Positions 38,757-64,000 of a stretch of DNA of 64,000 nt are shown here, one piece after another. The position numbers and the translations under genes are program-made. Location of the stretch: NCBI GenBank assembly GCA_003153035.1, contig PMBT01000026.1:296-64295 (forward strand). The letters run 5' to 3'. The DNA is from Opitutia bacterium. GTDB taxonomy: Bacteria; Verrucomicrobiota; Verrucomicrobiia; Opitutales; Opitutaceae. The first letter of the stretch is position 1, and each line of letters starts with the position of its first letter. Under the pieces are notes generated by a model. That model saw nothing but the letters and a program-made list of their open reading frames with translations, searched no databases and was not told the origin of the DNA.

Positions 38757-40907
38757 CTACAGCGCGACGTTGAACCGCGCGGATTCCGGGCCCGCGAACA
38801 GCAGGATCTCGCCGGGTTCGAGGATCCGTCGGCCGTCGCCATCCGGAAATGACAGGTCGCGCGCTGGATTGATTTCGAACTGGAACACGCGACTGGCGCC
38901 CGCCGCGATGGCCGCTGATTCGAAGTGCGTCAGCTCTTTCAGCGGACGCGTGATGCCCGCCGCCGGATCGCGAATGAACCAGAGTACCGTCTCGGTGCCG
39001 TCGCGCCGGCCGGTATTCGTCACTGTGACCTCCGCCTGCAACGTTTCGTCCGGGCTGACGGTGGGACGCCTCAGCCGAATTGGACTGTAGGCAAACCTCG
39101 TGTAGCTCAGGCCGTGGCCGAACTCGTAGAGCGGAGTCGTTCCGAAGTCCTGATACTCACCGTTCGGACTCACACGCGCCCGCGGCCGCATGTTGTGGTA
39201 GATCGGAATCTGGCCGGTGGTGCGCGGCCACGTGACCGACAGGCGGCCGCTGGGATTCCTGCGTCCGAGCAGCAGGTCCGCGACCGCCGCGCCGCCGCGG
39301 GTGCCCGGCTGCCAGACCGCCAGAATCGCCGCCATTCCCGGCTCCACTGCCGCCAACTCCACCGGTCGGCCGGAGACAACGAGCAGCACGACCGGCGTGC
39401 CCGTTGCCGCGACGGCCAGCGCAAGCTCCTGCTGCAAACCCGGGAGCCGCAGCGTCGAGCGGGAGGCGTTTTCGCCGCTCATCTGCGCGGATTCACCCAG
39501 GCAGAGCAGGACCAGATCGGAATCCCGGGCCAGCGCCACCGCCTCGGCAAATCCGTCCCGTCCGCCGCCGTCAATCGCGCAGCCCTGCGCAGCGCGCAGC
39601 TGAACTCCCGCCGGGAGCTTCTCCCTCACCCCTTCAAGCAGGCTCACAACCTCGTGCGCCCTGCCCTGCTGGCTCCAAGCACCCAGCAGTGCCGCTTTTT
39701 CATCCCCAAGCGGGCCGATCATCGCCAGCCGGCACACACTGCCGGCCACCGGCAGGATGTCGCCGCGGTTCTTCAGCAATACCATCGACTGAGCGGCGAA
39801 CTCCTCCGCCAGTTTCAGAAAGTCCCCGCGTGGCGGCAAATCCTCTCCCGAGGCCGGTGGACAAAACGGATGTTCGAACAGGCCGAGGTCGAATTTCACG
39901 CGCAGGATCCGCTGGACGGCCGCGTCGATGGTCCCTGGCGAGACCCTCGTCTGCTGCATAAGCGCGCCCAGGTGCTTGCGATAGAGCCCGTCCGCCATAT
40001 CGAGGTCCACGCCGGCGTTGATCGCTTTCTCGGCCGCCTCCGCCTCGTCGGCGGCGAATCCCTGGTTGATCAACTGCCGGACGGCGTTCCAGTCGGAAAC
40101 GACCAGTCCCTCAAACCCCCACCGATTGCGGAGAATCTCCGTCAGCAAGTGGCGGTTGGCGCTGGCCGGCACGCCGTTGAGGTCATTGTAGGCGCTCATG
40201 ACCGTGCGCGCGCCGGCCTTTACCCCCGCTGCGAAGGGTGGCAGATGCATCTCCCAGAGGCGCTGCGGCGAAATATCTGTATAGCTGTAGTCCCGCCCGC
40301 CTTCGGAATTGCCATAGCCGGCAAAGTGCTTGAGGCAGGCGGCCAGCGCTGGCGACGTCCCCGCCTCAAGGCCTTGATAACCACGCACCGCGGCCTCGCA
40401 GTAGATCGAGGCAGCGCAGGGGGACTCGCCAAAGGTCTCGGCAATGCGTCCCCAGCGGGCATCCACCGCGATGTCGACCATCGGCGCAAAGGTCCAGTCC
40501 ACGCCCTGGGCGCGGGCCTCCTCCGCGGCGGCGGCGCAGGCCTGGCGCACCAGTTCCGGATTCCATGAGCAGGCCTGTGCGAGGGGAATCGGGAAGATTG
40601 TCCGGTAGCCGTGGATAACGTCGGCCCCAAAGATCGCGGGAATGCCCAGCCGCGATTCTTCGACACATTTCCGCTGGAGGGCATTGCGGAGCGCCAGATC
40701 CGGCTGGGCGCCGTTGAGAATAAACGAGCCGTAAGTCGGTCGAAACTGCTCGGCCAGCAAAGGAAGGTTATTCGGGTTGGTGTCGCCGGCACCGCACTGG
40801 TGCAGCTGATCGATCTTCTCCTCGAGGGTCATCCGTCCGAGCAAATCCCGCACCCGCTGCTCCAAAGGCAGGCGGGCATTCCGGTAGGGCAAGGTCTCCG
40901 CAGCCAT
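38757..40907 (-). CDS. Glycoside hydrolase family 3 beta-glucosidase (BglX-like), no signal peptide
   Basis: LEQRVRDLLGRMTLEEKIDQL, GIPAIFGADVIHG, KHFAGYG and GLVVSDWNAV (SDW nucleophile motif), with a C-terminal Fn3-like domain. A GAGGAGG Shine-Dalgarno sequence lies upstream. Confidence 0.9.
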   Translation of the reverse strand: MAAETLPYRNARLPLEQRVRDLLGRMTLEEKIDQLHQCGAGDTNPNNLPLLAEQFRPTYGSFILNGAQPDLALRNALQRKCVEESRLGIPAIFGADVIHGYRTIFPIPLAQACSWNPELVRQACAAAAEEARAQGVDWTFAPMVDIAVDARWGRIAETFGESPCAASIYCEAAVRGYQGLEAGTSPALAACLKHFAGYGNSEGGRDYSYTDISPQRLWEMHLPPFAAGVKAGARTVMSAYNDLNGVPASANRHLLTEILRNRWGFEGLVVSDWNAVRQLINQGFAADEAEAAEKAINAGVDLDMADGLYRKHLGALMQQTRVSPGTIDAAVQRILRVKFDLGLFEHPFCPPASGEDLPPRGDFLKLAEEFAAQSMVLLKNRGDILPVAGSVCRLAMIGPLGDEKAALLGAWSQQGRAHEVVSLLEGVREKLPAGVQLRAAQGCAIDGGGRDGFAEAVALARDSDLVLLCLGESAQMSGENASRSTLRLPGLQQELALAVAATGTPVVLLVVSGRPVELAAVEPGMAAILAVWQPGTRGGAAVADLLLGRRNPSGRLSVTWPRTTGQIPIYHNMRPRARVSPNGEYQDFGTTPLYEFGHGLSYTRFAYSPIRLRRPTVSPDETLQAEVTVTNTGRRDGTETVLWFIRDPAAGITRPLKELTHFESAAIAAGASRVFQFEINPARDLSFPDGDGRRILEPGEILLFAGPESARFNVAL

Positions 40908-41008
40908 GGCAAAAGTTCCTCCTCAATTCACGCTGCACCCCATCGTCAGCGTGAGCGGTCGCCACAAATCTGTGCCCGGTGAAGCCGGGAGCGGAGAGAC
41001 GGGGGTTT

Positions 41009-44000
41009 TCATTGCACGGAAAGACGCAGCAGTTTCGGCGGCGGCGCAGTAAACGCACGCTCTGTTTCGCGACCATCAGGCCAGCGAATCCGCAGCCGAA
41101 CCGGCAGAGCGGAATCGGCGTAACCGAAAAATACCGTCGCGCTCGACTGCGCCAAATAACCCGAGCCGGCGCTGACTTCAGCGGTCTGGGTCGAACCGTC
41201 GGTGAGCTGCAGCGTGAGCCGGGCCCCGACGGCCGTGGGGTTTCCCGGCGCACTGCGCAGCGCCACGCCGAAACTGTGCCGGCCGGGCTGGCCGCGGTTG
41301 AGAAAGGTCAGCGGGAGGTCGTTATTGCGCGTCACGAAAACATCAGGCCAGCCATCCTGGTTGAGATCGGCCGCCGCCAGCGCGCGAGCATCGCCGGGTA
41401 CGATGAATCCGCTCTCGGCCGGCGGCACCGGGGTGAAACCGCCTGCGCCGTCACCACGCAACAGCCAGCCGATGCCGCCGTCGAACCGGCCGGTCTCCGG
41501 AATTGGCGCATAGGAGTTGCCGACCAGCAGGAGGTCGGCGCGACCGTCACCGTCGAAATCGCCGGCCACGATGCCGTGGACCGGGGCGATTTGGGCCAGA
41601 CGCGGCAGTGGCGTGAAGCGGTAGGTGCCGTCGCGCTGCGAGAGAAAAATGCCGCTGCGCAATTCGGTGGCTGCGAACTTGGTGGCCGCCGCCAGCGTTG
41701 CCGCTGGAAATACCTCCTCAAGCGTGGCTTTCGCGTAAGATTCGGCCGTGGGGAAGCGGCGGGCCAGCGAAGGGAATACGCTCGCCAGCGTCTCACGGGT
41801 GCGCAGCGGATACCATTTGCCTCCCTCGGCCTGCGCCTCGACGAGCTGCGGAGCAGAGCCGTCGAGCGCCACATTAGCGTAGAGCACCGCCGGCTCGGCG
41901 GCGGAGGCGTGATAGCGGGTGTTGAGTCCGATGTTGCCCACGACAAAGTCCGGCTGGCCGTCGCCGTTGAAATCCGCCGCCGCCAGCGAGCGCCACCAGC
42001 CGTTGCCGGCGGAGGCGAAGCCGAGCTTTTCCGTCACGTCCTCGAGACATTTCCCGTTCACGTTGCGATAGCACGCGACCGGACCCCAGTCGTACGCGAC
42101 CAGCAGGTCGGGCCAGCCATCGCCATCGATATCGCTCCAGAGCGCGGCCGTGACCATGCCGCGCGCGGCGAGCGAGGGTGCGAACTCGGCGGTCACATCG
42201 ACATAGCGCCCGTCGCGCCACGCGAGCAGGGCGCTGCGCGGCGCTTCCGGATAGCGGCCCGGCACGATGCGACCGCCGATGAATATCCCGAGCCGGCCGC
42301 TGTGCTCGAAGTCGGCGGCGGCGGCAGCCCCAACGGTGATGGGGAGCGGTGGCATCATCCTGGCCGGCGCCGCCGCGAACTGGCCGCGGCCCTTATTGAG
42401 CAGGAGGTGCGGCTGGTAAGCCGGCGAATCGGCTGGCGCGGCGATGCCGGCTTTGGTGACCAGCAAATCCAGGTCGCCATCCGCATCGGCATCGAACGCG
42501 AGGATCGGCCCGTCGGCGACCACCACATTCTCATTGAACAGGCTCAAACCATAAGCGAGAAACCGGCCGCCGCCGAGATTGGAAAAAAGCCGGCCGGACT
42601 CACCCGACACGCCGCCCAGTGCGAGATCGTCCTCTCCATCGCCATCAAAATCGGCGAAGGCGACCGCGGGGCCGGGCCGGTTGAACCGGAAAGGCAGCAG
42701 CGGCTGCTGACTCAGTTCATTGAGCGGACGCTCGTGATTGGGGACATCAAGATTTGCAGCCTGACCGGCCTCGGTGAATAACGGGGTGGGCCTCGCCGGT
42801 AGTGATACGGTCGGGGCTTCCGCGGGTTCGGTGATGGTGTACCGCCGGTCGGCGACGAGGTTGCTGAATGTCTGGCGGCGGCCGCTGGGCCACTCGATTG
42901 TCAGCCGTCGGATGACGTTATTGTTGCCGAGGCCAAAGTGCACGATGGGCTCGCTCGTGGAGAGGTAACCGCGAGCGAGAGTGAGCGTGCGCATCTGCGG
43001 ACCGTCGTCGGTCACGATCCGTACGGTGGCGCCGACTCCGAAGCGATTGGAGGCGGTGCCGCGCAGATCGAGCACGACCGCATGGCCGGCATCCGCGTCG
43101 TTCCGGCAGACGGTGAGCTCACCGTCATAGCTGGCGAACACGAGGTCGAGGTCACCATCGCCATCGAGATCGCCGAACGCCGCGCCAAAGCCGACCCCGA
43201 GGTGATCGAGACCCCACGCCGCGCTGACGTTCTCAAACCGCAGGTCGCCGAGGTTGCGGAATGCCAGGTGCCGCTCGGCCAGTGGCGGACTCACCTTCAT
43301 GACCCGGATGCTCTCGGCCATGGTCTCGGCGGCCAAGGAACGTTGCACGAGGTCGGCATTGGTGAATTCGCGCACCATCCCGGTGGTGAAATAGGCGTCG
43401 AGCCGGCCATCCAGATCGAGATCTTCCAGGCGGACGCCAAAAGTCCAGTCGGTCGCCTGCAAGCCGGCCAGGTGCGCGGCCTCGAGCACGCGGCCGGTGC
43501 CGGTGCCGAGGAAAAGGGCATTCTGCATGTACTGTGGCGCGGCCTGGGGATACTGTTCGTCGTCCGGCAAAGCGCTCCTGAGTTTCGCCATGCCACGATG
43601 GTTTTTGTAGCGCGTGGTGGCCGCCATGTCGGCGACGAACAGGTCGAGATGACCGTTATTCTCCAGGTCGCCCAGGTCGGCGCTCATCGAGAAGTGCGGC
43701 GTGTGCGGGACGACGGAAGAGAGCACATTGGTGAAGGTGCCGTCACGGTTGTTGTGGTAGAGCTGATCGGGCTGCCAGAAATCACTCGGGACATAAAGAT
43801 CGGGCCAGCCGTCCTCATCATAATCCCACCACATGGCTGAATGGCTCTGCAACTCGCCGGAAATCCCGGCCCGATCGGTCACGTTTGTGAACGTCCCGTT
43901 GCGATTGCTGTGAAAAAGATAGCCGCGCTGGCCATTGGGATGCGCGGCATGGTCCAGCAGGTTGGTTGCTAGGTACATGTCGAGCCAGCCGTCGCGGTCG

Positions 44001-44608
44001 TAGTCGCAGAAGGCCGCCATCACGCTTGAGTCGGTGACATCGAGCCCGTAGGCATGCGCCATCTCCTTGAAGCTGCCGTCCCCCTGGTTGATATAAAGCA
44101 GGTTCGGGGCGTTGAAACGGCAGACATAAATATCGAGCCGGCCGTCATTGTTCACGTCCGCAAAGGCCGCACCCTGTTTCCACGCGCCCGTCGGACCGGC
44201 GACGCCGGCCCGCTCAGTGACATCCTCGAAACGGAAGCCGCCGAGATTGCGAAACAGATGGTTCGGGCCTGTTTTGCTCACCACAAAAACATCCGGCCGG
44301 CCGTCACCATCGAAATCGCCGATCGCGACGCCTGTGCCGATCGAACCGGCGTTGAATTCGTGGTAAAGTTGCCCCCACATCGCCGGATCGTCGTACGCAT
44401 TGCCGGCCTTCAGGCCGGTCTGTGCTGACGGCAAAGTCACGAAGAGGGTCGGACCACGCGGGCCGGACCGTACAGCCAATGGAACCGAGGCCGGCTCGGC
44501 CGGAGACCCCCCCGCCGACCCTGCGCAGACTCCCATGGCCGCCATGATGCCCAGGCAGAGACCATGGGATAGTCGCCTATTATGCAGGATGCTCGGCAGA
44601 GCAGACAT
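41009..44608 (-). CDS. CRTAC1-family protein: multiple FG-GAP/VCBS repeats plus two ASPIC/UnbV domains (1199 aa), secreted
   Basis: Trimmed to ATG 44608 (MSALPSILHNRRLSHGLCLGIMAAMGVCAG). Repeated GDFDGDGRPD, DYDRDGWLD, GDLDGDGDLD and DFDGDGEDD Ca-binding FG-GAP loops. UnbV-type blocks are RFGVGATVRIVTDDG...ARGYLSTSEPIVHFGLG and AVGARLTLQLTDGS...GSGYLAQSSATVFFGY. Confidence 0.88.
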   Translation of the reverse strand: MSALPSILHNRRLSHGLCLGIMAAMGVCAGSAGGSPAEPASVPLAVRSGPRGPTLFVTLPSAQTGLKAGNAYDDPAMWGQLYHEFNAGSIGTGVAIGDFDGDGRPDVFVVSKTGPNHLFRNLGGFRFEDVTERAGVAGPTGAWKQGAAFADVNNDGRLDIYVCRFNAPNLLYINQGDGSFKEMAHAYGLDVTDSSVMAAFCDYDRDGWLDMYLATNLLDHAAHPNGQRGYLFHSNRNGTFTNVTDRAGISGELQSHSAMWWDYDEDGWPDLYVPSDFWQPDQLYHNNRDGTFTNVLSSVVPHTPHFSMSADLGDLENNGHLDLFVADMAATTRYKNHRGMAKLRSALPDDEQYPQAAPQYMQNALFLGTGTGRVLEAAHLAGLQATDWTFGVRLEDLDLDGRLDAYFTTGMVREFTNADLVQRSLAAETMAESIRVMKVSPPLAERHLAFRNLGDLRFENVSAAWGLDHLGVGFGAAFGDLDGDGDLDLVFASYDGELTVCRNDADAGHAVVLDLRGTASNRFGVGATVRIVTDDGPQMRTLTLARGYLSTSEPIVHFGLGNNNVIRRLTIEWPSGRRQTFSNLVADRRYTITEPAEAPTVSLPARPTPLFTEAGQAANLDVPNHERPLNELSQQPLLPFRFNRPGPAVAFADFDGDGEDDLALGGVSGESGRLFSNLGGGRFLAYGLSLFNENVVVADGPILAFDADADGDLDLLVTKAGIAAPADSPAYQPHLLLNKGRGQFAAAPARMMPPLPITVGAAAAADFEHSGRLGIFIGGRIVPGRYPEAPRSALLAWRDGRYVDVTAEFAPSLAARGMVTAALWSDIDGDGWPDLLVAYDWGPVACYRNVNGKCLEDVTEKLGFASAGNGWWRSLAAADFNGDGQPDFVVGNIGLNTRYHASAAEPAVLYANVALDGSAPQLVEAQAEGGKWYPLRTRETLASVFPSLARRFPTAESYAKATLEEVFPAATLAAATKFAATELRSGIFLSQRDGTYRFTPLPRLAQIAPVHGIVAGDFDGDGRADLLLVGNSYAPIPETGRFDGGIGWLLRGDGAGGFTPVPPAESGFIVPGDARALAAADLNQDGWPDVFVTRNNDLPLTFLNRGQPGRHSFGVALRSAPGNPTAVGARLTLQLTDGSTQTAEVSAGSGYLAQSSATVFFGYADSALPVRLRIRWPDGRETERAFTAPPPKLLRLSVQ

Positions 44609-44792
44609 GGGGAGTAATCTGGGGTGGATGCTAGCGGGCAAAAGGAACGCCTTCTTATTGTGCGACCGCAACACAGGGTTGGCCAGCTGAAGGTTAGAAG
44701 ACGTTCGTTTGCCACGACAATCCGGGTATGACTTTGCCCTCAATCGGGCCGGCAAGAACAGCCGCCGGGCGGCGCCCCCGCCCTCGCGACGA

Positions 44793-46016
44793 TTATCGCT
44801 TGCTGAAGGCGTCTTTTATCTCGTCCAACGAAACACCAAGGGTGGCGCGAGCCACTCCGTCCAGCGCGGCCTTCGGCCCGCTCAGGTGAAATGTCCGCTG
44901 GGTGTGCGAGAGCCTCTCGCCGGGCGCAAGCGCCGCTGCCGGCGAGGAGGATTCGAGTTCGTAAAAGGGCCCCATCGGCTTCGCCCCTGGCGTGGCCGGT
45001 CCGTCGTTGTAGGCGTTCGCCGCGTCGCCTCGGAAAGGATTATCCTGGAGCTTCCAGAGCGAATTCACGTAATCGGTCACGCCGGCCGGCTGCGTAAACT
45101 TGACCAGCGTCAGGACGTTGTTGCTCGCATCATAACTGCCCAGGATCGCCTTGCTGCGTTTAGGGCTAATGCCGATCTTGCTGCGGTACTTGCCGTCCGC
45201 CGCGAACAAAATGACGTCGTCCCTGATGATGAGCCGATCCGCAGGAACGGGGCCGAAGTAATCCGACGTCGCCTTCACCCCGAGTTCGGATTCCGGGCCG
45301 GACTTGATCGGAACCACGATACTGGTGGAAGGGGAAGGATTGAACATACTCAGGATCCAGATTGAGAGCTCCCCGGTTTCTTTCTTCCACGCCTCTTTGC
45401 CCGCGTTGGTGATCCGGTTCTCGCTGGCAAACGCCACCATGCTCACGTCCTTGACCGGCAAGATTCCCAGTTCCTTCCAAACCGCCGCGGCATCCAACAA
45501 ACTGACTTTGCGCTCCACTTTGACCTCGAAGCGCGTTCCTGAGTGGTTAACGAGGCCGAACTTCGCCCCGAAGAGCACAGCATCGTTGGATTTGGAGATT
45601 ACCGCGAACGGCAATGTGTCGAAAACCGCCGGGGTTTGCCAATCGGCGAACTCGAACTTCGTGCCTGGCGCAAAAAAGATCGAGAACTGGCCGCCTTCCG
45701 GGCCCATCCAGAATCGATCTTCACCCCCAAACGCGTTCATGTGCGGCAATGGTTTCCCGGAGGCAATGAGCTCACGATTGACCCAGCCGTGGCTCGAGCC
45801 GCCATCGCCCCCGGCACTGCTCGTCATCACCCGGCCCTGCCAAGCCGGAACCACGGCGAGTTCCGCAGCTCCGGCATGGTCCCTCAACACGATGACTTCA
45901 GTGTGATCTTTGAGAAAAGTCACATCGTCGCCGAACGTGGCGGCCCGGCCAAAGGGAGTGAATGCTGCCGCTGCGATCATCACCGCTATAGCGCTTCCGA
46001 TGGGGCTTTGTTTCAT
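44793..46016 (-). CDS. Secreted hypothetical protein (407 aa), possible mutarotase-like beta-sandwich
   Basis: The signal peptide is MKQSPIGSAIAVMIAAAAFTPFGRA. FGGEDRFWMGPEGG recalls the GG(H/E)R(L/F)W..PE motif of DUF4380/aldose-epimerase-like folds. It is beta-rich throughout. Family not assigned. Confidence 0.7.
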   Translation of the reverse strand: MKQSPIGSAIAVMIAAAAFTPFGRAATFGDDVTFLKDHTEVIVLRDHAGAAELAVVPAWQGRVMTSSAGGDGGSSHGWVNRELIASGKPLPHMNAFGGEDRFWMGPEGGQFSIFFAPGTKFEFADWQTPAVFDTLPFAVISKSNDAVLFGAKFGLVNHSGTRFEVKVERKVSLLDAAAVWKELGILPVKDVSMVAFASENRITNAGKEAWKKETGELSIWILSMFNPSPSTSIVVPIKSGPESELGVKATSDYFGPVPADRLIIRDDVILFAADGKYRSKIGISPKRSKAILGSYDASNNVLTLVKFTQPAGVTDYVNSLWKLQDNPFRGDAANAYNDGPATPGAKPMGPFYELESSSPAAALAPGERLSHTQRTFHLSGPKAALDGVARATLGVSLDEIKDAFSKR

Positions 46017-46141
46017 GATGGTATCTGGGATGGTTTTTCACTGCGTTTCTGCCGGAGATAAAACTCTGCCCACCAGATGGGCCGGGGGTTGGCATTGGTG
46101 CAGGTTTCCTGGAACGAGACGAGGAAACTTTCCTCCCTTGC

Positions 46142-48343
46142 TCACCGCGAATCCGGATGGTCCGGCTTGAAACCGATGGCGTCGAGCGCGGGCTGGATCT
46201 CCGGGTTGGCCATGAATTCCTTCCACAGGAGGCCGGTGCGGTGGTTCTCGATCATGGCGACGATCTGCGCCTGGTTGAGCCCCATCCACACCTCTTCGTA
46301 CCAGTTCAGCGAAGGATTAAAGCTGTCATAGAATCCATAGATTCCCCACGTCTTGGCCCCGAGATCGCGGTAATAATGCTTCAGCGCGGCCATCGATTCC
46401 TCAGGCGTGTAGGGGAACGCCCCGAGCGCGGCCGAGATGCAGATGGTGCCGATGTCGTCGCGCGGGACGGGACGGCCGCCCCCGCAATTAATCCCCGCTG
46501 AGAGTCCCCAGCAATCGGGCCCGTAACCGGCGTGCCCGCGCGCGTTCTCCATGCAATAGGCGCGGTTGATAAGCGCAAGCGCGCGGTTGTTCTGGAAATA
46601 GTTCGTGTAGGCGTCGCGCCGGCCCCGCGGATCGAAGCCCAAGAAGGAGAACTGGGTGAAGAACAGTTCGCCGCCGGTGCCGAGGCCGACGTCGAGCTTG
46701 TGGCCATAGTAGCTGTTCCCGTTGGTATAGTGGTCGCCGGCCGTCGTTCGGCTCCAGCCCCGGCGGTAGCGGACCGCCGGCGCGGATTGTCCGGCCCACC
46801 CCGTGTGGTAGAGGCTGGCCGGCACCGCATGCGTCGGCGACGCAATCGCGAGCAGGTAGATGATCAGCGTCTCATTCCAGCCGACCAGCGGGTGGCTGAT
46901 ATGCCAGCCGTGGTCGGGCGACCAGTGCCAATAAAGAAAATCGCCCGCCGGCTCCTTGCGGAACCAGTTCCATTCGACGCCGCGCCAGCAGGCGGTGATC
47001 GTTTCGCGGATCGCCCGTTCGGCGGCGTTGTCGCGGTTGAAATACTGCCGGGCCGTCAGCAGGCCCTGCATGAGGAATGCCGTCTCCACCAGGTCGGCGC
47101 CATCGTCGTAGGATCCAAAGTAAGGGATGACCTTGCCGGTGCGCCCGTCGAGGAAATGAGGCCACGCGCCGTGGAACCGGTCGGCGGTCTGCAGGAAATG
47201 CACGATCTTCAGCAGGCGCCCAGCGCCCTGCTCGCGGGTGATGAAACCGCGCTCCGTCCCCGTGACCAGCGCCATGACGCCGAAACCCGTCGCGCCAAGC
47301 GCGCACAGATCGTCGTTGCCCGGCAGAAGTTCGATGGCCATGCCGGAATTGGGATGGCCCGCCTCCCAGTAGTAGCGGAAACAGCCTTCCTGCACCATGG
47401 TGAGCAACTCCTCGTCGTTGAACTCGCGAGTCGCGCCCGAGGCCGCGGGGGACAGGACCGACTCGCGGCCGGACTCGTCGATTGCACTGATCTTGTAGAA
47501 CGCCTGGCGGCCTGGTTGTCCTATGAAATCCGCGTAACGGTTCACCTCACCTTGCTGAATGCCGACGGGAGCGTACGTCCGGCCGTCCAATGAGCGGTAG
47601 ATCTGGTAGCGGAACGGCGGTTTCCCGGCCGGCCGCGCCCACGTCAGGTCGAAGTGGCGTTCGCCGGGCTTGACCGCGAGACCGTCCGGCGCGGCGGGCG
47701 CCGGCCCGCCCGCAACTTCGTCTGGCCCGACCTCCACGTCGTCAATGTAGAGCGTGTGTTCCCGGCCATCGTCGAGGCCCTGCTCGAAGATCAGGCCCGC
47801 CAGCTTGTGAAGGTCGAAGCGATTCTCAGCGGTCCCGCCATATTGCCCCTGAAAATCAGCCAGCCTGAAGCGCAACTGCACCCACCGGCCGGCCGGAAGC
47901 GCGCCCTGCCGGTCGAGCAGCGTGATGGTGCCCGCCCAGGCGTCCGTCATGTCCTTCAGGTTCAGTCGCGGCGACTCCTCGGGTGTCAGGCCCTCTTCCG
48001 AGAAACACCAGAAGGACAGGGTGTCGCCCCGGTAGTCGAAGCTCGGGCTGTAGTGTTCCGACGCCTTGAGCGTCATTTGCCAATCGCCACCTGGTGCGGA
48101 TTTCCATTTTAGCCGCAGCCCGTTCGGTGGTGAAATGAAGTGGTCGGTCTCAACCGGGAACTTGCCGTCGACTAGATCGAGTTTGCTGGGCGCAATGATT
48201 TTGCCATAGCTCCGGTAAAGTGATCCGTCGGCCAGGCTGTTATCGAAGACGACGTGGTGGAAATAAGTGGACTCGGCCAGGACATTGAGGCTGCCAAGCG
48301 ACAGCAGGACGGCGAGGCAGGCGGAACGGACTTTGATGTGCAT
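46142..48343 (-). CDS. GH144-type (DUF3131/'glucoamylase-family') candidate endo-beta-1,2-glucanase with N-terminal CBM-like and Fn3-like modules
   Basis: The signal peptide is [23 protein letters not shown]. The Fn3-like module is [24 protein letters not shown]...[14 protein letters not shown]. Catalytic-domain blocks are shared with the paralog at 55316-58111: [40 protein letters not shown] and [13 protein letters not shown]. Confidence 0.82.
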
Positions 48344-48428
48344 GGTGGGTTAAACGGTCTTGGCTGGCTCAGGCAACGTTCATCGCGATGGTTTCGCTAC
48401 CCAGGAGGTTGCTTCGGCTTGGTGGAAA

Positions 48429-48560
48429 GTGGCACGGGTCTCCCGACTCGTGGTTAAAGGGAACACGGGTCAGGAGACCCGTGCCACAAAACTGATGATA
48501 GTTGGAACGGGACATAAGGGGTCTTGTGCAAATGCCTTGGGGCAAGCCCCGAGGATCTCC
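48429..48560 (+). repeat. Composite double-hairpin repeat, copy B
   Basis: GTGGCACGGGTCTCCCGACTCGTGGTTAAAGGGAACACGGGTCAGGAGACCCGTGCCAC-AAAACTGA...GGGACATAAGGGGTCTTGTGCAAATGCCTTGGGGCAAGCCCCGAGGATCTCC. It lies between the GH94 stop (48630) and the GH144 start (48343). Confidence 0.85.
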
Positions 48561-48629
48561 GCTTCCTCTTTTACCTCCTATAAAATGGTCTGTGGCTGCT
48601 CCGCCGCGCTTTGGGACATCCGCGCCTAC

Positions 48630-52084: not shown

Positions 52085-52210
52085 GCGGCACGGGTCTCCC
52101 GACCCGTGGGGATCGGAAACACAGGTCGGGAGACCCGTGCCACTAAACTGACGCTGAATGCAGCGGGACATGAAGTGTCTTGTTCAAATGCCCCGGAACT
52201 TACTCCGGGG
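52085..52210 (+). repeat. Composite double-hairpin repeat, copy C
   Basis: GCGGCACGGGTCTCCCGACCCGTGGGGATCGGAAACACAGGTCGGGAGACCCGTGCCAC-TAAACTGA...GGGACATGAAGTGTCTTGTTCAAATGCCCCGGAACTTACTCCGGGG. It lies between the TonB-dependent receptor stop (52448) and the GH94 start (52037). Confidence 0.85.
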
Positions 52211-52447
52211 AACGTCAAGGGGGTTGGGGCATGGAGAGGTAGAGCGGGTGAATAACCAGCGCCCGTTTGCGCGAGCAGAGGCCAAACCCGCAGGAACCAG
52301 GAAGACACCGCCAGTGCCCAAACCCCGGCCAACGGGTCTGGGCGCGCCAGTGGTTCTGAAGCGCCATCCGGCCGTCCGGGCCGGATGGCTTCCTCAGAAT
52401 GGAGATGGCACCAGCATCAGGCCCGATGCCATCGGATTTGGGAGTCC

Positions 52448-55243: not shown

Positions 55244-55315
55244 GGTAGTCTGGGTTATGCGTTCGAGAGTTGCTGTTGTTTGGTGTTGTTTACTGTCGGG
55301 GAAGAATCGTCGGGG

Positions 55316-58111
55316 CTACTCGAGGCGCAGCGTGCCGAGCCCAAAGCGTTCGTCGCGGCGGTCGTAATAGCGCCAGTTCAACTTCAATGATGGCTCCCAT
55401 TCGAAGGAGCCCTCTGAGACCACCGCGGGGGAAACGCCAATCACAAGGCCGGAGCGGGGCGTGAGCCCCAAGTCCGACCAGGGGATGTCGGCCTCGACTT
55501 CATAGCCCTGGTCCGTGCGCCGGACCTCCCCCTGCACCGGGCGGTTGTGGAACCACTCCGTCACCGCGCCGTTGGCCCGGAAGCTGAACTGGCTGTCATC
55601 CGCACCAGACCAGACGAGACCATCGTTTTTCGGGTCGACGAACAATTCCACGCCGTTGCGCGGCGAGGGGGTTGTCAGCTTGGGAAGTTCATCCATCACC
55701 TCGGCGTGGAAGTGCAGCGCGGCCTGGTCCCAGGTGAAGGCGAAGCGCATCGCGAGCGCCGGGTCGCCCGGCCGGATGTCAGCCACGGAATCCTTGAATT
55801 CCAGGCCGGCCACCCGGGTCCACCTCCACTGGTCGCGCGGCGCGGTGGCGGACACGGCGACTGCCAGGCGCTCGGGCGGCACCAATTCCGGCCCGGCCAA
55901 TTGTCTCCGGTACAGGATCGAGTTGTTGCGACCGAACGCTGCTTCGACGAACTCCGGGATCGCCGCGCGGCCGGCCTGAACCAGCGGATCTTGCTGGAAC
56001 CATTGCCGGATGCAATCGGGCACAAGGAGGTTGGCCACAGTGATGAGCAGCGCGGCTCGGTCCTCCGCTGATGTCTTTTCGATCCACTCCGCCGGCGGCG
56101 GCGCCCTGTCTAAATGTGCAACCGTCGTCGCGGGGAATTCCGCCAGGAGCAACGCAGTCGTTAGCACGTCGTAAGGAAAAGTCTTCGCTGCGCCGGAGTC
56201 CTCTCTGAGTCGCGCGTAGGCAAACTGTGCCGCCGATGCTCCCGAGATGATCGATCGCTCGTCGAGCCAGAGCCCGGGTAGCAATTGGTCACGGACGTTT
56301 ACCGGCGCGAGCACGTAAACCGGTCCAAAAGGCTGCGGCGTGCGTTCCAGCCCGGTCCAAGCCGACGGCGGGCGGGCGCCTGCGGCCACCTGGAAAAACG
56401 TCGTCAGCCGATCCACGGCGCCTAGCTGGTCCGATACGGCCGGAATCGTCTTCCAGTCAATCGCGGTCAGGCGGCGCGTCGCTTCCGCCGCCAGACTTGG
56501 GATCGCCTGGCGCAGCGTGGCCAGGCCTGCGGCATACTCCGCCACCGCGACCCCGTCCTGCGCCGCCGGCGCCGTGCGCAACAATGCCCCGGCCCGGGCC
56601 GCCGCCTCCGCGCTAGAGATAAAACCGAGCGTCTCGGCCGCGATGATCGATGACAGCTCCAATCCCACCGTAACGCCCGGCGTCGCTCCAAGCGATTTCC
56701 ACGCCCGGGCCGCCAGCTCGCGCAGTTCATCGTGGCCGGGTCCGGTCAGATCGCGGCTCGTCGAGACGAACCCGGCGCGGGCCAGCGCCCGCTGGACCTC
56801 AGGCGCCCCCATGAACAACGACCAGACGAAGCCGGTCCGGACGTTTTCCGCCTGTAGCAGCGTGATTCCCAGATCGATGCCGATGACATCCGGATTGACC
56901 CACCCTGTCTCGGGGTTGAAGGCATCCACAAAACCGTAGCGTTTCCAGATGCGATCGCCGTAGGCGGTGCGCATGTATTGGAGCGCCGTCAGAGTCTCGC
57001 CAGGGGCAAAGGGCAACGAACCCGCCGGCGCGCATGGCACGATCGTGCCGTCGAGCGCGTTGAAATCAGTGGTGCGCGGCGGCCCCCCCCAGGCCTTGTA
57101 GCCGGTTGCGGAATCGGAGGCGGTGAGGCCCCACAGTTTTTCGCCCCAATGGGGAAATTCCGACCGCAGATCCATGCAGAATTTTCGCTGCGCCAGCGTG
57201 GCCAGGGTGGAGTTCAGGAAATAATCCGCATATGCATCCCGCAGGCCGCGAAAATCGCAGTAGGCCTGGGCGAATTGATGCACGAACAACTGCGCCCCCT
57301 GAATGTAATGGTAACCGCCGTAGCTGCCGAGCGGTGCGCGGGCCCAGGCGCTCCAGAGTTCCGGCTCGATCGGCCGCTCGGGCGCGCCCAGCCCCAGCAG
57401 GGTGAGCAGCTTCAGCTCCGAGTACCGATCCCAGCGGAAGCGCGAGAAACCCGTCTCGTCGAACCAGCCCATCGCGAAGGTCCTCCCGCCGTTGAGAAAC
57501 CAGTGCCAGTCCACCTCGCGATAGAGTTGGTCGACCAGCCTGGTGATCTCGGGGTCGTGGAAGTACTCGCGCGCCGCGATGGCGCCGGCGAGAAACAACC
57601 CGGTGTCGATGGTCGAGATCTCGCACTTCCACGCGCGCGCCCCGGTATCCATCTCCATGAAGTGGTAGAAGAAGCCGTGCTGGCGCCGAGCCTCGGTGGC
57701 GAGGAAGCGCAGCAGGGTCTGCACGCGCCGCACTGCCGTCGAGCGCTCCATCCAGCCCCGCTCGGTGCCCACCGCCCAGGCGCTGAGGGCGAAACCGGTC
57801 GCCGCGATGCTGGCCTTGCCTTCGGTCGGCGAGCCGTCGGCCCGCGCCCGGTCGCGCACCAGACCAGTACGGGGATCCGCCTGCTCCGAGAAATAGCGAA
57901 AGGACGCCATCTCCAGCTCGTTGAGAAACGCATCATCGGCAGCCGGCAGCTTCACCACCGCCCGCGCCCCCGGCCGTTCGCCGGCCCCGCCCTGCATCAC
58001 CGTTTCTTCGCGCGGCGTTTCCGCCCGCCCTCGCCCGCCTGCAAGCAAGAGGACGAGCGCGCCCAGAAAGAGCCGACGTGGTGACGCCGCGGGGATGCGA
58101 AACGGAGCCAT
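55316..58111 (-). CDS. GH144-type (DUF3131) candidate beta-1,2-glucanase, with an unassigned central region and a C-terminal CBM9-like module
   Basis: The N-terminus has an RR motif (SPRRLFLGALVLLLAG, Tat-like). Catalytic blocks are ASFRYFSEQADPRTGL, IAATGFALSA, HGFFYHF, LWGLTASD and RYGFVDAFNPETGW. The C-terminal module is ALHFHAEVMDE...GVELFVDPKNDG...DSQFSF...GYEVEADIPWSDLGL (CBM9/DOMON-like pattern). Confidence 0.82.
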   Translation of the reverse strand: MAPFRIPAASPRRLFLGALVLLLAGGRGRAETPREETVMQGGAGERPGARAVVKLPAADDAFLNELEMASFRYFSEQADPRTGLVRDRARADGSPTEGKASIAATGFALSAWAVGTERGWMERSTAVRRVQTLLRFLATEARRQHGFFYHFMEMDTGARAWKCEISTIDTGLFLAGAIAAREYFHDPEITRLVDQLYREVDWHWFLNGGRTFAMGWFDETGFSRFRWDRYSELKLLTLLGLGAPERPIEPELWSAWARAPLGSYGGYHYIQGAQLFVHQFAQAYCDFRGLRDAYADYFLNSTLATLAQRKFCMDLRSEFPHWGEKLWGLTASDSATGYKAWGGPPRTTDFNALDGTIVPCAPAGSLPFAPGETLTALQYMRTAYGDRIWKRYGFVDAFNPETGWVNPDVIGIDLGITLLQAENVRTGFVWSLFMGAPEVQRALARAGFVSTSRDLTGPGHDELRELAARAWKSLGATPGVTVGLELSSIIAAETLGFISSAEAAARAGALLRTAPAAQDGVAVAEYAAGLATLRQAIPSLAAEATRRLTAIDWKTIPAVSDQLGAVDRLTTFFQVAAGARPPSAWTGLERTPQPFGPVYVLAPVNVRDQLLPGLWLDERSIISGASAAQFAYARLREDSGAAKTFPYDVLTTALLLAEFPATTVAHLDRAPPPAEWIEKTSAEDRAALLITVANLLVPDCIRQWFQQDPLVQAGRAAIPEFVEAAFGRNNSILYRRQLAGPELVPPERLAVAVSATAPRDQWRWTRVAGLEFKDSVADIRPGDPALAMRFAFTWDQAALHFHAEVMDELPKLTTPSPRNGVELFVDPKNDGLVWSGADDSQFSFRANGAVTEWFHNRPVQGEVRRTDQGYEVEADIPWSDLGLTPRSGLVIGVSPAVVSEGSFEWEPSLKLNWRYYDRRDERFGLGTLRLE

Positions 58112-58207
58112 GGGAACAACCTGGCGAGCGGGGTAGGATTTTAAGAGGGTCCGTCGCAGCCGGGCCTACCGGGGCCGGGTTGCACGGAAATGCAACGTAA
58201 CTGACAA

Positions 58208-58224
58208 CGTTTGCATTGCAAACG
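58208..58224. promoter_or_regulatory. Candidate LacI-family operator O1: CGTTTGCATTGCAAACG (perfect 17-bp palindrome)
   Basis: Read directly from the sequence. It is about 97 nt upstream of the GH144 gene start (58111), inside an unusually AT-rich stretch (58185-58300). Confidence 0.6.
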
Positions 58225-58283: not shown

Positions 58284-58297
58284 TGCAAACATTTGCG
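58284..58297. promoter_or_regulatory. Candidate LacI-family operator O2: TGCAAACATTTGCG
   Basis: ATTGCAAACATTTGC is shared exactly (15 nt) with the site at 59742-59755, and the full 20-nt context matches at 18 of 20 positions. It is about 173 nt upstream of the GH144 gene start. Confidence 0.6.
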
Positions 58298-58563: not shown

Positions 58564-59637
58564 CTAGACTGGCTGGGTCGACTCGCGGATCACCAGGGCC
58601 GCCGGCATCTCATGGAGGACCGGCCGCCGGGCCTTGCCCGGCGCGCCCGCCGCCTCGACCACCAACCCGACCGCCCGCTCCGCCATGTCCGCCAACGGCT
58701 GACGGATGGTGGTCAGCGCCGGCCGGCAGGCCGTCGCCCACATCCCGTCATCAAACCCGACCACCGAGACATCCTCCGGGCAGCGCAGTCCCGCCAGGTT
58801 CGCCTCATGGATCGCGCCAAAGGCGATTTCGTCATTGGCACAGCAGAGCCCCGTGGGCCTGTCCCCGGAACCGAGGAAACGTGCGAAGCCCTCCCGTCCG
58901 GTCTCGGCACTGAACGGACCTTCGTAAATCCACTCGGCGCGCGGCGTCACCCCTGCTTTTTCCAGCGCATCGAGATATCCCTGCCTGCGCTCGTGGACAT
59001 CGCGGGAGGCGCTGGGGCCCAGCAGCAGCCCGATCCGCCGATGCCCGAGCTGCAGCAACAAGCTCGCCGCCGATTGGGCCCCGGCAAAATTGTTCACCCC
59101 CACCACCGGCACCCCAAAGTCGCTCACAGCGGTCTCAGGCGGCAGCACGGACTTGGCGACCACAAACGGCCGCCGGTAGCCGTGCAATTCCTGCAGATCT
59201 TTGAGCAGCAATGGCTCGGCCAGGTAGATGATGCCGGAGGAATCCATGCTCAGGTGCTGCATGGCCTCGCGAAAGCTCGCGCCGGGCTTCCGGTTCAGGG
59301 TGCAGATTTGCACGCCCCACCCGCGCGCCGCCGCCGCGTGCAGCGTGCCCGCCAGAAACCGGCCGTAAAACTCGGAAAAGAAAATGTTTTCATCCAACGG
59401 CACCACGACCGTCAGGGTGGAATTGATCCCCCGGCGCAGCATGCGGGCCCCGGGATTGGGGGAGAAATTCTGCTGCTCCGCCAGATCGAGGATGACTTTG
59501 CGGGTTTCCGCACTCACCAGATGAGCCGTTTCCGGTCGCAGCGCCCGCGAGACGGTCGAGGGGGACACGCCGAGACGCTCTGCGATCTGCACAATGCCCA
59601 CCCTGGTTGGCCGCGAGGAGGAGGATCGGATGGGCAT
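58564..59637 (-). CDS. LacI-family transcriptional regulator
   Basis: Trimmed to ATG 59637: MPIRSSSSRPTRVGIVQIAERLGVSPSTVSRALR (LacI HTH). A periplasmic-binding-protein-like sugar-binding core follows (VVPLDENIFFSEF..., VVGFDDG). Confidence 0.9.
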   Translation of the reverse strand: MPIRSSSSRPTRVGIVQIAERLGVSPSTVSRALRPETAHLVSAETRKVILDLAEQQNFSPNPGARMLRRGINSTLTVVVPLDENIFFSEFYGRFLAGTLHAAAARGWGVQICTLNRKPGASFREAMQHLSMDSSGIIYLAEPLLLKDLQELHGYRRPFVVAKSVLPPETAVSDFGVPVVGVNNFAGAQSAASLLLQLGHRRIGLLLGPSASRDVHERRQGYLDALEKAGVTPRAEWIYEGPFSAETGREGFARFLGSGDRPTGLCCANDEIAFGAIHEANLAGLRCPEDVSVVGFDDGMWATACRPALTTIRQPLADMAERAVGLVVEAAGAPGKARRPVLHEMPAALVIRESTQPV

Positions 59638-59741: not shown

Positions 59742-59755
59742 TGCAAACATTTGCA
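59742..59755. promoter_or_regulatory. Candidate LacI-family operator O3: TGCAAACATTTGCA
   Basis: Palindromic half-sites TGCAAA/TTTGCA. It is centred in the divergent region, about 105 nt from the lacI-family start and about 98 nt from the MFS start. Confidence 0.65.
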
Positions 59756-59852: not shown

Positions 59853-61289
59853 ATGAATCCACAGAAGCACCATCTTACCGCCCCGGCGGACAGAATTCCG
59901 GTGCCTCAGAAGATCGCCTACGGCCTGGGGGCCGTGGTCACGATCGTCGCGGTGAACTCAGTCCAGCAGCTAAGCGGACTCGTCTATGTGGTCGGGTTGG
60001 GAATCAGCGTGGTCTGGATCAACTGGGCCCAGGCGTTCCCGCGGTTGTGGGATGCCGTGGTGGATCCGTTCCTGGGCAACCTGTCCGACAACTCACGTTC
60101 ACGATTCGGCCGGCGGATCCCCTTTCTCGTGATCGGGGGAATCCTGATCGGAATCGCGTTCTGGCTGCTCTGGGCGGTGCCGCGGGACTGGAGCAAATCC
60201 GGGATGTTTGCCTACTTCGTCGTGGTCTCGCTCTTTTTCTACACAGTCATCCCCATTTACGCGATTCCTCACGGGGCGCTGGGACTTGAGATGACCGAGG
60301 ACTATCACGAGAAGACCAGCCTATTCGCCTACGCCAGCTTCGTCGGCAATGTGGGTGCCTTCACGCTTCCGTGGATTTACTACCTGGCCAACCGGCCGAT
60401 CTTCGGAGGCGACGCCGTGAAAGGGATCAAATGGGTGTGTCTCGGGATGAGTGTCCTGCTCACGGCGTGCGCGCTCACCTGCGCCCTGGTCTGCAAAGAG
60501 GCCAAGCTGAAGCAGGCGAAGTCGCAGGAGAAGGTGCCGATCTGGGAGAGCTTCAAGACCACGTATCGGAACCCGACCTTCCTGCGGCTCGTGCTGGTGT
60601 TTGTGCTGCTGATCGTCGGATTCCAGCTCGTCATGGGATTCAACAACTACATCTCCATCTTCTACCTTTTCGGGGGCAACAAGGACGCGGCTTCCACCCT
60701 TATGGGCGAAAATGGCACCCTCTGGGCCGCGATCGGGCTCGCGGGCGTCTTTCCGATGACGTGGTTGTCCAAGCGGTATGGCAAGCGGGCCACGGTCATG
60801 GTCGCGCTCGGGATCATGATCGTGGGGAACCTGTCGAAGATCCTGTGCTACAGCCGGACGTATCCCTGGCTGACGTTCATCCCGACCGTGGGGCTGTCGC
60901 TCGGCATGGTGTTCTCTTTCACGCTCGTCAACTCGATGATCGCCGACATCTGCGACGAAGACGAATTCGCGACGGGCATCAGAAGGGAGGGTATTTATTT
61001 CGCCGTCTACAACTGGTGGTGGAAGGTGGCGGTCTCGATCGCCACGGTCGTCAGCGGCTATGTGCTCCGATTCACGGGCTTCCAGGAGGGCCTGCCCACC
61101 CAGACCGAGGCCACGCTCTTCTGGATCAGATTCTGGGAAATCGGGCTGCCCCCGTGTCTGTGCCTGATCAGCCTGATCTTGCTGGTCAAATACCCGCTGA
61201 CTGAAGAGCGGGCCTACCAGATCAAGGGACTGCTGGCCGCCAAGCGCGCGCAGCGCCTGGCGACCGCTGCGGTGGAACCCGCCTCCTAG
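59853..61289 (+). CDS. Glycoside-pentoside-hexuronide (GPH):cation symporter family MFS transporter
   Basis: Trimmed to ATG 59853 (MNPQKHHLTAP...). WDAVVDPFLGNLSDNSRSRFGRRIPFLV is the GPH/MelB-type loop 2-3 signature. About 12 TM segments. Confidence 0.88.
   Translation: MNPQKHHLTAPADRIPVPQKIAYGLGAVVTIVAVNSVQQLSGLVYVVGLGISVVWINWAQAFPRLWDAVVDPFLGNLSDNSRSRFGRRIPFLVIGGILIGIAFWLLWAVPRDWSKSGMFAYFVVVSLFFYTVIPIYAIPHGALGLEMTEDYHEKTSLFAYASFVGNVGAFTLPWIYYLANRPIFGGDAVKGIKWVCLGMSVLLTACALTCALVCKEAKLKQAKSQEKVPIWESFKTTYRNPTFLRLVLVFVLLIVGFQLVMGFNNYISIFYLFGGNKDAASTLMGENGTLWAAIGLAGVFPMTWLSKRYGKRATVMVALGIMIVGNLSKILCYSRTYPWLTFIPTVGLSLGMVFSFTLVNSMIADICDEDEFATGIRREGIYFAVYNWWWKVAVSIATVVSGYVLRFTGFQEGLPTQTEATLFWIRFWEIGLPPCLCLISLILLVKYPLTEERAYQIKGLLAAKRAQRLATAAVEPAS

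Positions 61290-64000: not shown

Follow-up and report, generated by a model that had tools for sequence, protein, structure and literature searches.

Here we focus on a 64,000-nucleotide stretch of contig PMBT01000026.1 from an uncultured Opitutaceae bacterium (the window; G+C about 64%). From position 38757 to its end, it very probably carries a LacI-repressed catabolic locus for the uptake and degradation of beta-1,2-glucan, of the type known as a carbohydrate utilization locus containing a TonB-dependent receptor (CUT locus; TBDR). This reading is carried by a phosphorylase with the functional residues of SOGP (1,2-beta-oligoglucan phosphorylase), by two GH144 proteins that match solved beta-1,2-glucanases, by a gene order kept across dozens of species, and by operator-like sites shared among the promoters of the system.

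Layout of the locus

An earlier note on this DNA had described seven co-directional minus-strand genes running from 58111 down to 38757, together with a GPH symporter and a large secreted protein on the plus strand, and all of these open reading frames (ORFs) are present. The LacI gene, which was said to be divergent from the seven, is in fact on the minus strand, upstream of them and co-directional, and diverges from the GPH gene only. For SOGP, LacI, GPH and the FG-GAP protein, the likely start codons give genes shorter than the maximal ORFs. The genes are:

38757-40907, minus strand: GH3 of the BglX/Lin1840/BT_3567 group, leaderless; GH3 N and C domains, Fn3-like
41009 to ~44608, minus strand: FG-GAP/ASPIC-UnbV ('CRTAC1-like') exported protein with a double module; start uncertain, ORF to 44755
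44793-46016, minus strand: DUF6786 protein (PF20583)
46142-48343, minus strand: GH144b (PF10091 in Pfam)
48630-52037, minus strand: SOGP (GH94) with SOGP_N, SOGP_2nd and SOGP_4th; likely ATG at 52037, giving 1135 aa; ORF to GTG 52091
52448-55243, minus strand: TonB-dependent transporter (TBDT; Plug domain in Pfam)
55316-58111, minus strand: GH144a, bearing CBM9 (PF10091 and CBM9 in Pfam)
58564-59637, minus strand: LacI-family gene; likely ATG at 59637, ORF to 59688
59853-61289, plus strand: GPH (MFS_2) symporter (PF13347, TIGR00792); likely ATG at 59853
61358->64000, plus strand: exported discoidin and six-hairpin protein, of whose 1076 aa the window contains 880

The sequence blocks on which the first annotation had relied can all be read in the translations, namely ATGF(A/G), HG(FF/AW), WGL(T/S)A and YGF(V/Y)D(A/S)FNP in the GH144 proteins, GDGDWDDT in the phosphorylase and SDW in GH3. 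Its domain labels held at the level of Pfam families, with the exception of DUF3131 and Fn3, for which there is no Pfam match in the GH144 proteins. Sec-type leaders can be read in GH144b, the TBDT, the DUF6786 protein and the discoidin protein, and the claim that the GH94 and GH3 proteins have no leader was borne out.

The phosphorylase and its specificity

The GH94 protein is assigned to the SOGP type rather than to that of cellobiose or chitobiose phosphorylases, because it has SOGP-specific Pfam domains, a very strong match to the Lachnoclostridium phytofermentans enzyme (LpSOGP) and all of the functional residues defined there. A placement among cellobiose or chitobiose phosphorylases, one of the findings by which the earlier note would have been refuted, is not what is seen, and none of the other such findings was made either. 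Pfam finds SOGP_2nd (E 1e-38), SOGP_4th (E 2e-7) and, at residues 42-267, SOGP_N (PF21958, E 5e-57), the counterpart of Ndom1, the additional N-terminal domain from which the catalytic pocket of the monomer is built. In a sequence search of the PDB, the match to LpSOGP (5H3Z) has an E of 2.8e-187, and otherwise E<=1e-3 is reached only by cyclic beta-1,2-glucan synthases (CGSs), and by no cellobiose or chitobiose phosphorylase.

The residues of LpSOGP that bind glucose-1-phosphate, phosphate and sophorose were taken from PMC5309861. Of these catalytic, phosphate and subsite residues, 17/17 are kept in the window SOGP, as they are in the Listeria orthologs of Lin1839, to which the protein is 34-37% identical. 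The catalytic acid D760 corresponds to D798, inside GDGDWDD, and N138 and Y141 correspond to N164 and Y167. At subsite -1 and the phosphate-binding site, R667, D668, W796, E956, Y961, H963, S1044 and S1045 are kept, while at subsites +1 and +2 Q621, G623, A626, R907, R916 and Y1004 are found as Q658, G660, A663, R946, R955 and Y1043. It is the residues of the +1 and +2 subsites that set the beta-1,2 specificity of SOGP.

Two GH144 enzymes

The claim of two GH144-type catalytic domains proved right, as both match solved GH144 beta-1,2-glucanases with E values from 6e-67 to 1e-205. With the GH94 protein being of the SOGP type, the proposed substrate, beta-1,2-glucan or sophoro-oligosaccharides, is well supported.

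GH144a consists of a catalytic region (~50-455), a middle region of ~300 aa without assignment and a C-terminal CBM9 (Pfam: PF10091, 'Glycoamylase', E 1e-65; CBM9_1, E 1e-9). Its top PDB matches are XcSGL (XCC2207; 8XUL, E 6.5e-67), a beta-1,2-glucan-specific GH144 endo-enzyme (PMC12102758), and then CpSGL (5GZH, E 1e-49). The functional residues of GH144 are used here as defined in PMC12102758, that is, the general acid (E211 in CpSGL, E239 in XcSGL), the base (E142 in CpSGL), a Phe (F268/F286) and the Tyr that stacks on glucose in the -3 subsite (Y330 in CpSGL, Y367 in XcSGL). GH144a keeps all four, with the general-acid Glu in RYSE, an acidic candidate base in STID, the Phe in QLF and the Tyr in TGY, and its gene heads the putative regulated operon. 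The protein is predicted to be an exported, XcSGL-like endo-beta-1,2-glucanase. The Tat-like RR leader (SPRRLFLG) that had been ascribed to it does not extend to its relatives; the closest ortholog (86% identical) reads SRHR, and about 35 others have plain Sec-like leaders. The case for Tat export is therefore weak, and as a general feature of GH144a it was rejected.

GH144b aligns with BDI_3064 (5Z06) in a single alignment of 696 residues (28-723 against 6-700; E 1e-205, 688 bits), which includes ~280-300 aa homologous to the N-terminal domain of BDI_3064; its match to CpSGL has an E of 1e-121. The equivalents of D135, D139, E142, E211 and F268 are kept, with the general acid in GWNE, the base in DLVE and the Phe in ELF. 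The -3 subsite Tyr, which defines the SGL clan in the literature (PMC12102758), is absent from GH144b, where the loop is three residues shorter (GINCGGG) and BDI_3064 has WNY. This loss is common to 15/16 GH144b orthologs in which the motif was recovered, and the Tyr is kept in the most distant of them, a Phycisphaerales protein 40% identical. In Opitutaceae, the Tyr-less loop reads GIN(S/C)GGG, in place of WNY or KGY. (The orthologs of this Tyr-less subgroup are those in L007, L019, L024, L028, L030, L037, L042, L044-L046, L051, L052, L055, L063 and L077.) Such a protein would fit an enzyme without a -3 subsite. BDI_3064 is an exo-enzyme that takes sophorose off the non-reducing end (PMC8861115, PMC11975218), and GH144b is probably an exported, BDI_3064-like, exo-acting sophorohydrolase.

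How the two enzymes might be divided between compartments is suggested by the Bacteroidota-type clusters, in which exactly one of the two GH144s carries a type IX secretion system (T9SS) tail. Because of this, the analogy supports one outer and one periplasmic GH144.

Conservation of the locus

Three metagenome contigs carry identical copies of the locus. The best relative of the GH94 protein has ~73% protein identity over its full length, and the window therefore comes from an undescribed Opitutaceae lineage. To gather relatives, a single genome of each species was scanned with the GH94 protein, which gave 77 other loci, mostly from Opitutaceae (Oleiharenicola, Didemnitutus, Lacunisphaera and Opitutus among the genera), and their gene content was determined by tblastn with all window proteins. 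An SOGP at least 55% identical is found in 59 loci, again mostly Opitutaceae, and most of these share the core order LacI>GH144a>TBDT>SOGP>(GPH>discoidin)>GH3/GH144b.

Among the 38 of these loci that span at least 20 kb, the TBDT is found in 36, GH3 in 34, GH144a in 33, LacI in 32, GH144b in 28, GPH in 21, the discoidin protein in 10, the FG-GAP protein in 5 and DUF6786 in 0. The GPH and discoidin genes are directly 3' of SOGP and on the same strand in most species. The window and the loci nearest to it (L007, L046 and L075) differ in that GPH forms a divergent unit upstream of lacI on the opposite strand; in the window, the discoidin gene comes after it.

The idea of a seven-gene pathway did not survive this comparison. 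Since DUF6786 occurs in 0/77 and FG-GAP/ASPIC in 6/77 other SOGP loci, neither has a general link to beta-1,2-glucan.

Transporters and the GH3 enzyme

The size of the TBDT (931 aa), its Sec leader and the Phe at its C-terminus are consistent with a TonB-dependent transporter. It has a Plug domain (Pfam, E 4e-8) and N-terminal PDB matches to TonB-dependent receptors (E 1e-7); the 22-strand barrel domain PF00593 was not detected in Pfam. There is neither a SusD domain nor a SusC-type NCBIfam or Pfam match among the proteins of the locus. The TBDT is classified, on the plug domain, as a divergent TonB-dependent outer-membrane transporter that is not of the SusC type. It sits between GH144a and SOGP in 36/38 related loci.

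For passage through the inner membrane, the window has the GPH carrier (PF13347, E 6e-66; TIGR00792, E 1e-49). Of the 38 loci, 21 have GPH and 14 have an ATP-binding cassette (ABC) system of binding protein and permease, 0 have both and 3 have neither (Fisher 7e-8; the Fisher tests, here and for the FG-GAP protein below, ignore the relatedness of the species). As GPH and ABC are mutually exclusive in the loci, the GPH carrier is predicted to import sophoro-oligosaccharides in place of an ABC system, for which this exclusion is the best available evidence.

GH3 has the N and C domains of its family plus an Fn3-like domain, with the nucleophile Asp in SDW. Its PDB matches are JMB19063 (E 5e-160), Pseudomonas aeruginosa BglX (E 9e-156), BT_3567 (E 2e-147) and Lin1840 (E 3e-134). 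Against the NCBIfam BglX model it scores 608 bits, under the cut-off of 666, and so is BglX-like with no certified equivalog. From these matches it is assigned as a BglX/Lin1840/BT_3567-type beta-glucosidase. The protein is leaderless, as an in-frame stop lies six codons 5' of the ATG, which is preceded by a GAGGAGG Shine-Dalgarno sequence. Some orthologs, in L007, L046, L016 and L048, have an in-frame upstream extension resembling a signal peptide, and the compartment of GH3 may thus differ among species.

Regulation

The LacI protein has the HTH_LacI and Peripla_BP_3/1 domains (CytR/RbsR-like in NCBIfam), and in 32/38 related loci its gene is directly upstream of GH144a or SOGP. Operator-like palindromes are found in the window at:

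58202-58215: palindrome TGACAACGTTTGCA, 91 bp upstream of the GH144a ATG
58284-58297: palindrome TGCAAACATTTGCG, upstream of GH144a
59742-59755: perfect palindrome TGCAAACATTTGCA, midway in the divergent lacI/GPH promoter region

With up to two mismatches, the 14-mer TGCAAAYRTTTGCA has three matches in the 64 kb, against 0.37 expected, and three were reached in 0/100 shuffles. All three fall in two promoter regions, the one upstream of GH144a and the divergent one between lacI and GPH. A search with three mismatches added one site, outside the locus and at chance level, and the window showed no operator upstream of any of SOGP, GH144b, DUF6786 and GH3.

The sites are also found in relatives. 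The variant at 58202-58215 (TGCAAACGTTGTCA) recurs in most Opitutaceae loci, 100-220 bp upstream of GH144a, the second site upstream of GH144a is also conserved in orthologous loci, and equivalent sites are found 40-80 bp upstream of LacI. In other species, the motif occurs upstream of LacI, of GH144a and of SOGP where this heads its own unit, as well as between divergent GH3/GH144b pairs. As a phylogenetic footprint, this speaks well for a LacI regulon that spans the whole system, through putative TGCAAACRTTTGCA-type operators conserved across Opitutaceae.

The discoidin and six-hairpin protein

The protein at the window end is best described from its full-length form (P0121, 1076 aa), for which the AlphaFold2 model is confident, with a predicted local distance difference test score (pLDDT) of 86.6. 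The domains of the model are a CBM-like one, one of the F5/8 type C, a beta-sandwich, an (alpha/alpha)6 barrel and, at the C-terminus, a second beta-sandwich. Foldseek matches the model to dextran dextrinase, GH94, GH116, GH65 and GH15 at ~10% identity. This is a similarity of fold alone. Neither by sequence nor by profile does the protein significantly match a defined CAZy family of the GH15/GH65/GH94/GH116-like kind, and no relation to a solved GH family, or to one defined in Pfam, is seen at the level of sequence. Pfam gives sub-threshold matches only (GH15, E 0.0055; Bac_rhamnosid6H, E 0.0057 in the window and 7e-7 in the L021 ortholog), and the barrel has no sequence match in the PDB. The possibility of a divergent GH94 or GH144 was rejected on hhalign probabilities of 0.2 against SOGP and 0.3 against GH144, and on the absence of GH144 and GH162 structures from the top 50 Foldseek matches.

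The family keeps consistent company. When contigs with non-Opitutaceae homologs were inspected, 5/5 had the gene inside clusters of the Ignavibacterium album type, which run from a large outer-membrane protein, a PorV-like protein, GH94, a GH144 with a T9SS tail and a second GH144 to the discoidin protein in one to three copies, followed by GH2/GH3/GH35 and ABC genes. In L086 (6803-16360), also an Ignavibacterium-type cluster, three tandem discoidin/six-hairpin paralogs are followed by a GH35 (IaSGT-like) gene. The family is found with SOGP/GH144 in loci of Rokubacteria/Methylomirabilota, Lentisphaerae and Phycisphaerae, and beside GH144/GH94 in Bacteroidota-like lineages and Zhuqueibacterota. 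A literature search combining beta-1,2-glucan with discoidin, Opitutaceae or Verrucomicrobia found nothing relevant, and the supplementary text of PMC8861115 gives the I. album cluster without its hypothetical genes. The discoidin protein is a consistent component of beta-1,2-glucan loci and most likely a glycosidase. We would go further only tentatively, at somewhat less than an even chance, and propose that it founds a glycoside hydrolase family dedicated to beta-1,2-glucan, for instance by opening cyclic glucans or by removing branches or substituents beyond the reach of GH144. It offers a well-supported target for enzymology and a likely missing activity in beta-1,2-glucan degradation.

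A separate candidate accessory enzyme, absent from the window, is seen in L021 (Oleiharenicola sp. Vm1), where the locus continues at 20404-22335 with the gene for a 643-aa protein that has a weak GH125-like (six-hairpin) match (E 6e-13). Vm1 is a cultured relative whose genome is complete, and L021 is closely related to the window locus, with its core but neither DUF6786 nor FG-GAP.

The FG-GAP/ASPIC and DUF6786 proteins

The FG-GAP/ASPIC protein contains FG-GAP_3 (x11, E 1e-84) and UnbV_ASPIC (x2, E 2e-38) domains. The six other SOGP loci that have its gene are L009, L016, L022, L031, L051 and L078, and five of them belong to the set of 38 that span at least 20 kb. Where the downstream sequence is sufficient and the TBDT shares at least 65% identity with that of the window, it is present in 5/5 loci, as against 0/33 with the other type of TBDT, which suggests a functional pairing with one TBDT subtype. 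As a secondary reading, the protein may be an obligate partner of that subtype, which would provide the first functional context for the 'CRTAC1-like' family. The locus serves as a genomic handle on its function.

The DUF6786 protein (PF20583, E 1e-157) has a Sec leader and belongs to a family that is ~70% identical across phyla (Verrucomicrobiota and Planctomycetota). It has no sequence homolog in the PDB, and no mention of it was found in the literature. Its top Foldseek matches are aldose-1-epimerase-like (E 3e-8, TM scores 0.40/0.53). As the AlphaFold2 model is poor (pLDDT 59.8, from an alignment of 36 sequences at ~70% identity), a mutarotase-like fold is a hint only. Elsewhere, the gene adjoins MFS_1 genes and once an FG-GAP/ASPIC gene. 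In L004-L006 and L087, an MFS_1 transporter gene repeatedly follows it, and in L087 the pair lies in a LacI/GH116/FGGY sugar operon. The impression is of an exported protein that is conserved as the partner of a sugar transporter. A general role in the beta-1,2-glucan pathway was rejected on its absence from the other SOGP loci, and here it is best treated as a strain- or lineage-specific add-on.

Surroundings of the locus

A palindromic element resembling repetitive extragenic palindromes (REP-like) occurs in three copies in the window, one of them at 27095-27149 and the other two on either side of SOGP:

52084-52144: REP-like element in the TBDT-SOGP gap; 25-nt arms, 92% complementary
48429-48487: REP-like element in the SOGP-GH144b gap

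The elements have arms of ~25 nt (GGCACGGGTCTCCCGACC...) and an 11-nt loop, and the two SOGP-flanking copies are alike in their flanks too. The arm motif has 7 matches against 0.19 expected. Scans of 38000-57999 for sigma-70 promoters and intrinsic terminators gave counts not above those of shuffles and were uninformative on operon boundaries.

Downstream of GH3, genes for GFO/IDH/MocA, epimerase, ureide permease and PfkB proteins were considered as further members and rejected, being conserved in the same strain only. Other carbohydrate-active enzyme (CAZyme) genes of the window are, on the minus strand and in this order, a GH31 with CBM6/35 (7274-10825), a GH2 (18609-21650) and a GH28 (27186-28610). 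The window also contains a subunit of pyruvate:ferredoxin oxidoreductase (4449-6200), a POT-family peptide transporter (14329-15897) and a PAS hybrid histidine kinase (16057-18372). These CAZymes and their neighbours are typical of what is expected for a polysaccharide-degrading Opitutaceae genome. Outside the family, the metagenome-assembled genomes of Methylomirabilota/Rokubacteria with loci L023, L025 and L083 have an SOGP 62-63% identical to that of Opitutaceae, which is as near as many Opitutaceae SOGPs are to one another. This suggests horizontal transfer or mis-binned contigs.

Proposed pathway and alternatives

Family memberships, residue conservation, gene order and operator conservation can be joined into a route whose substrate, compartments, order of steps and inducer we infer. 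The exported GH144a, XcSGL-like and with its CBM9, would cut linear or cyclic beta-1,2-glucan to sophoro-oligosaccharides, which the TBDT would take into the periplasm. There, the BDI_3064-like GH144b would trim them, probably releasing sophorose, and the GPH symporter would move short oligomers into the cytoplasm. SOGP would then phosphorolyse oligomers with a degree of polymerization (DP) of at least 3 to give glucose-1-phosphate, while the leaderless GH3 would split leftover sophorose to glucose. LacI would bind the TGCAAACRTTTGCA-type operators, those upstream of GH144a as well as the one in the divergent lacI/GPH promoter, and would presumably be released by sophorose or an oligomer. The compartment logic of the earlier note, from exported GH144s through TBDT and GPH to an SOGP and a GH3 predicted to be cytoplasmic, is supported in this form.

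Several points weigh against this reading. The whole route is a prediction from sequence, and the TBDT is identified by its plug domain only. With the clan-defining -3 Tyr gone, the exact activity of the Tyr-less GH144b is uncertain. Whether GH144a and GH144b reside at the surface or in the periplasm is not predictable from their sequences, as both have cleavable-looking leaders. The partition of flux is unclear as well, since a GH144b that turned everything into sophorose would starve SOGP, which needs DP>=3. Finally, the operon structure is presumed, and gaps of 286 and 410 bp that hold the REP-like hairpins flank SOGP.

Could the locus instead recycle or remodel the cell's own periplasmic beta-1,2-glucan, either a cyclic glucan or an osmoregulated periplasmic glucan (OPG), with SOGP even acting in synthesis? 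The SOGP reaction is reversible (PMC3960220), Xanthomonas, the host of XcSGL, makes its own cyclic beta-1,2-glucan (PMC11228985), and both GH144 enzymes are exported. We nevertheless consider it improbable. A TonB importer, an inner-membrane symporter and a LacI regulator with conserved operators together are the signature of catabolic uptake, and the glucan would be periplasmic while SOGP and GH3 are expected in the cytoplasm. Moreover, no cyclic glucan synthase or OpgH-type gene is found among the Pfam-scanned ORFs of the window, the related loci not having been screened for one. A slightly less probable alternative still is that the true substrates are small beta-1,2-glucosides, such as sophorosides of plants or microbes, sophorolipids or short sophoro-oligosaccharides, with a minor part for the GH144s. 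The GH144b without its -3 Tyr would suggest an exo-enzyme for short substrates, TBDTs and GPH carriers typically move small oligomers, and aryl and alkyl glucosides are substrates of IaSGT, from the Ignavibacterium-type cluster (PMC8861115). Against this stands GH144a, which heads the putative operon, is present in 33/38 loci, carries a CBM9 and retains the full set of residues of an endo-glucanase for which subsites -3 to +2 are necessary (PMC12102758).

The unrelated GH31, GH2 and GH28 genes in the window, the restriction of DUF6786 to this one SOGP locus and the large intergenic gaps within the cluster might be taken to mean that independently regulated genes came to lie side by side by chance in a CAZyme-rich genome. 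This explanation is contradicted by the conservation of core order and content across dozens of species, and partly across phyla, and by the common operator motif that marks the promoters, and we give it hardly any weight. The scavenging of glucan from other bacteria is a plausible use for the locus. Many proteobacteria make beta-1,2-glucans, either cyclic (rhizobia, Brucella and Agrobacterium) or as OPGs, and to our knowledge their consumers in soil and water are barely known. Opitutaceae, which are common Verrucomicrobia of soil, freshwater and wood, would widely carry a conserved, repressor-controlled system for their uptake and phosphorolysis, in which GPH and ABC act as interchangeable importers and the binding site of the regulator is predictable.

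Comparison with known systems

The GH144 polysaccharide utilization loci (PULs) of Bacteroidota (Cpin_6279 of Chitinophaga pinensis, BT_3567 of B. thetaiotaomicron and BDI_3064 of P. distasonis) share with the window the endo- and exo-acting GH144 enzymes and a beta-1,2-active GH3. These PULs use SusC/SusD pairs and hydrolytic breakdown only. The window, on the other hand, has no SusD domain and no SusC-type match, and has a phosphorylase.

In the SOGP clusters of Listeria innocua and L. phytofermentans, the enzyme (Lin1839) is accompanied by a GH3 (Lin1840) and an ABC transporter for sophoro-oligosaccharides. The likeness lies in an SOGP with identical substrate-binding residues and a leaderless BglX-type GH3 (PMC4757417, PMC5309861 and PMC3960220). 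Unlike the window, these are Gram-positive systems with an ABC importer and no outer-membrane step, and the Listeria loci lack GH144.

The claim that the transporter combination is unusual has to be withdrawn. A TBDR, an inner-membrane transporter, a regulator and enzymes are the components by which the CUT locus was described, for example in the sux sucrose locus (Blanvillain et al., 2007; PMC1790865), and a TBDR, an inner-membrane transporter, a sugar regulator and degradative enzymes are all found together here. With its TBDT, MFS-type importer, LacI-type repressor and degradative enzymes, the locus has the classical layout of the CUT loci of Xanthomonas and Caulobacter, which belong to another phylum and serve other substrates. 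The gene for XcSGL (XCC2207) itself adjoins a TBDR gene, XCC2208. No CUT locus for beta-1,2-glucan that contains an SOGP was found in the literature searched.

Nor is the locus as a whole unusual. Its core is standard in Opitutaceae, as the TBDT (36) and GPH (21) counts in the 38 loci indicate, and it is preceded by the speculative model of Kobayashi et al. (2022) for the I. album cluster IALB_1177-1187, which combines two GH144s, one outer and one periplasmic, with a TBDT, an ABC importer and a cytoplasmic GH94 (PMC8861115). The proposed succession of a GH144, a TBDT, a second GH144, an inner-membrane importer and a cytoplasmic GH94 is alike in the two, and clusters of the I. album type also hold the discoidin/six-hairpin family, as the window does. 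The I. album cluster differs in its ABC importer, in a GH94 of ~800 aa that resembles the C-terminal domain of CGS rather than a full SOGP, in its GH35 transglycosylase and in its T9SS-tailed GH144s. In the clusters of this type that were sampled, the I. album cluster itself not being among them, a LacI regulator was not encountered.

The locus is thus a lineage-typical version of a kind of system that had already been outlined, made up for the most part of known enzyme families, and it leaves the known picture of beta-1,2-glucan degradation unchanged. What it adds is the alternation of GPH and ABC importers, a conserved operator, the coupling of one TBDT subtype with the FG-GAP/ASPIC protein, a Tyr-less subgroup of GH144b, and the discoidin/six-hairpin family.

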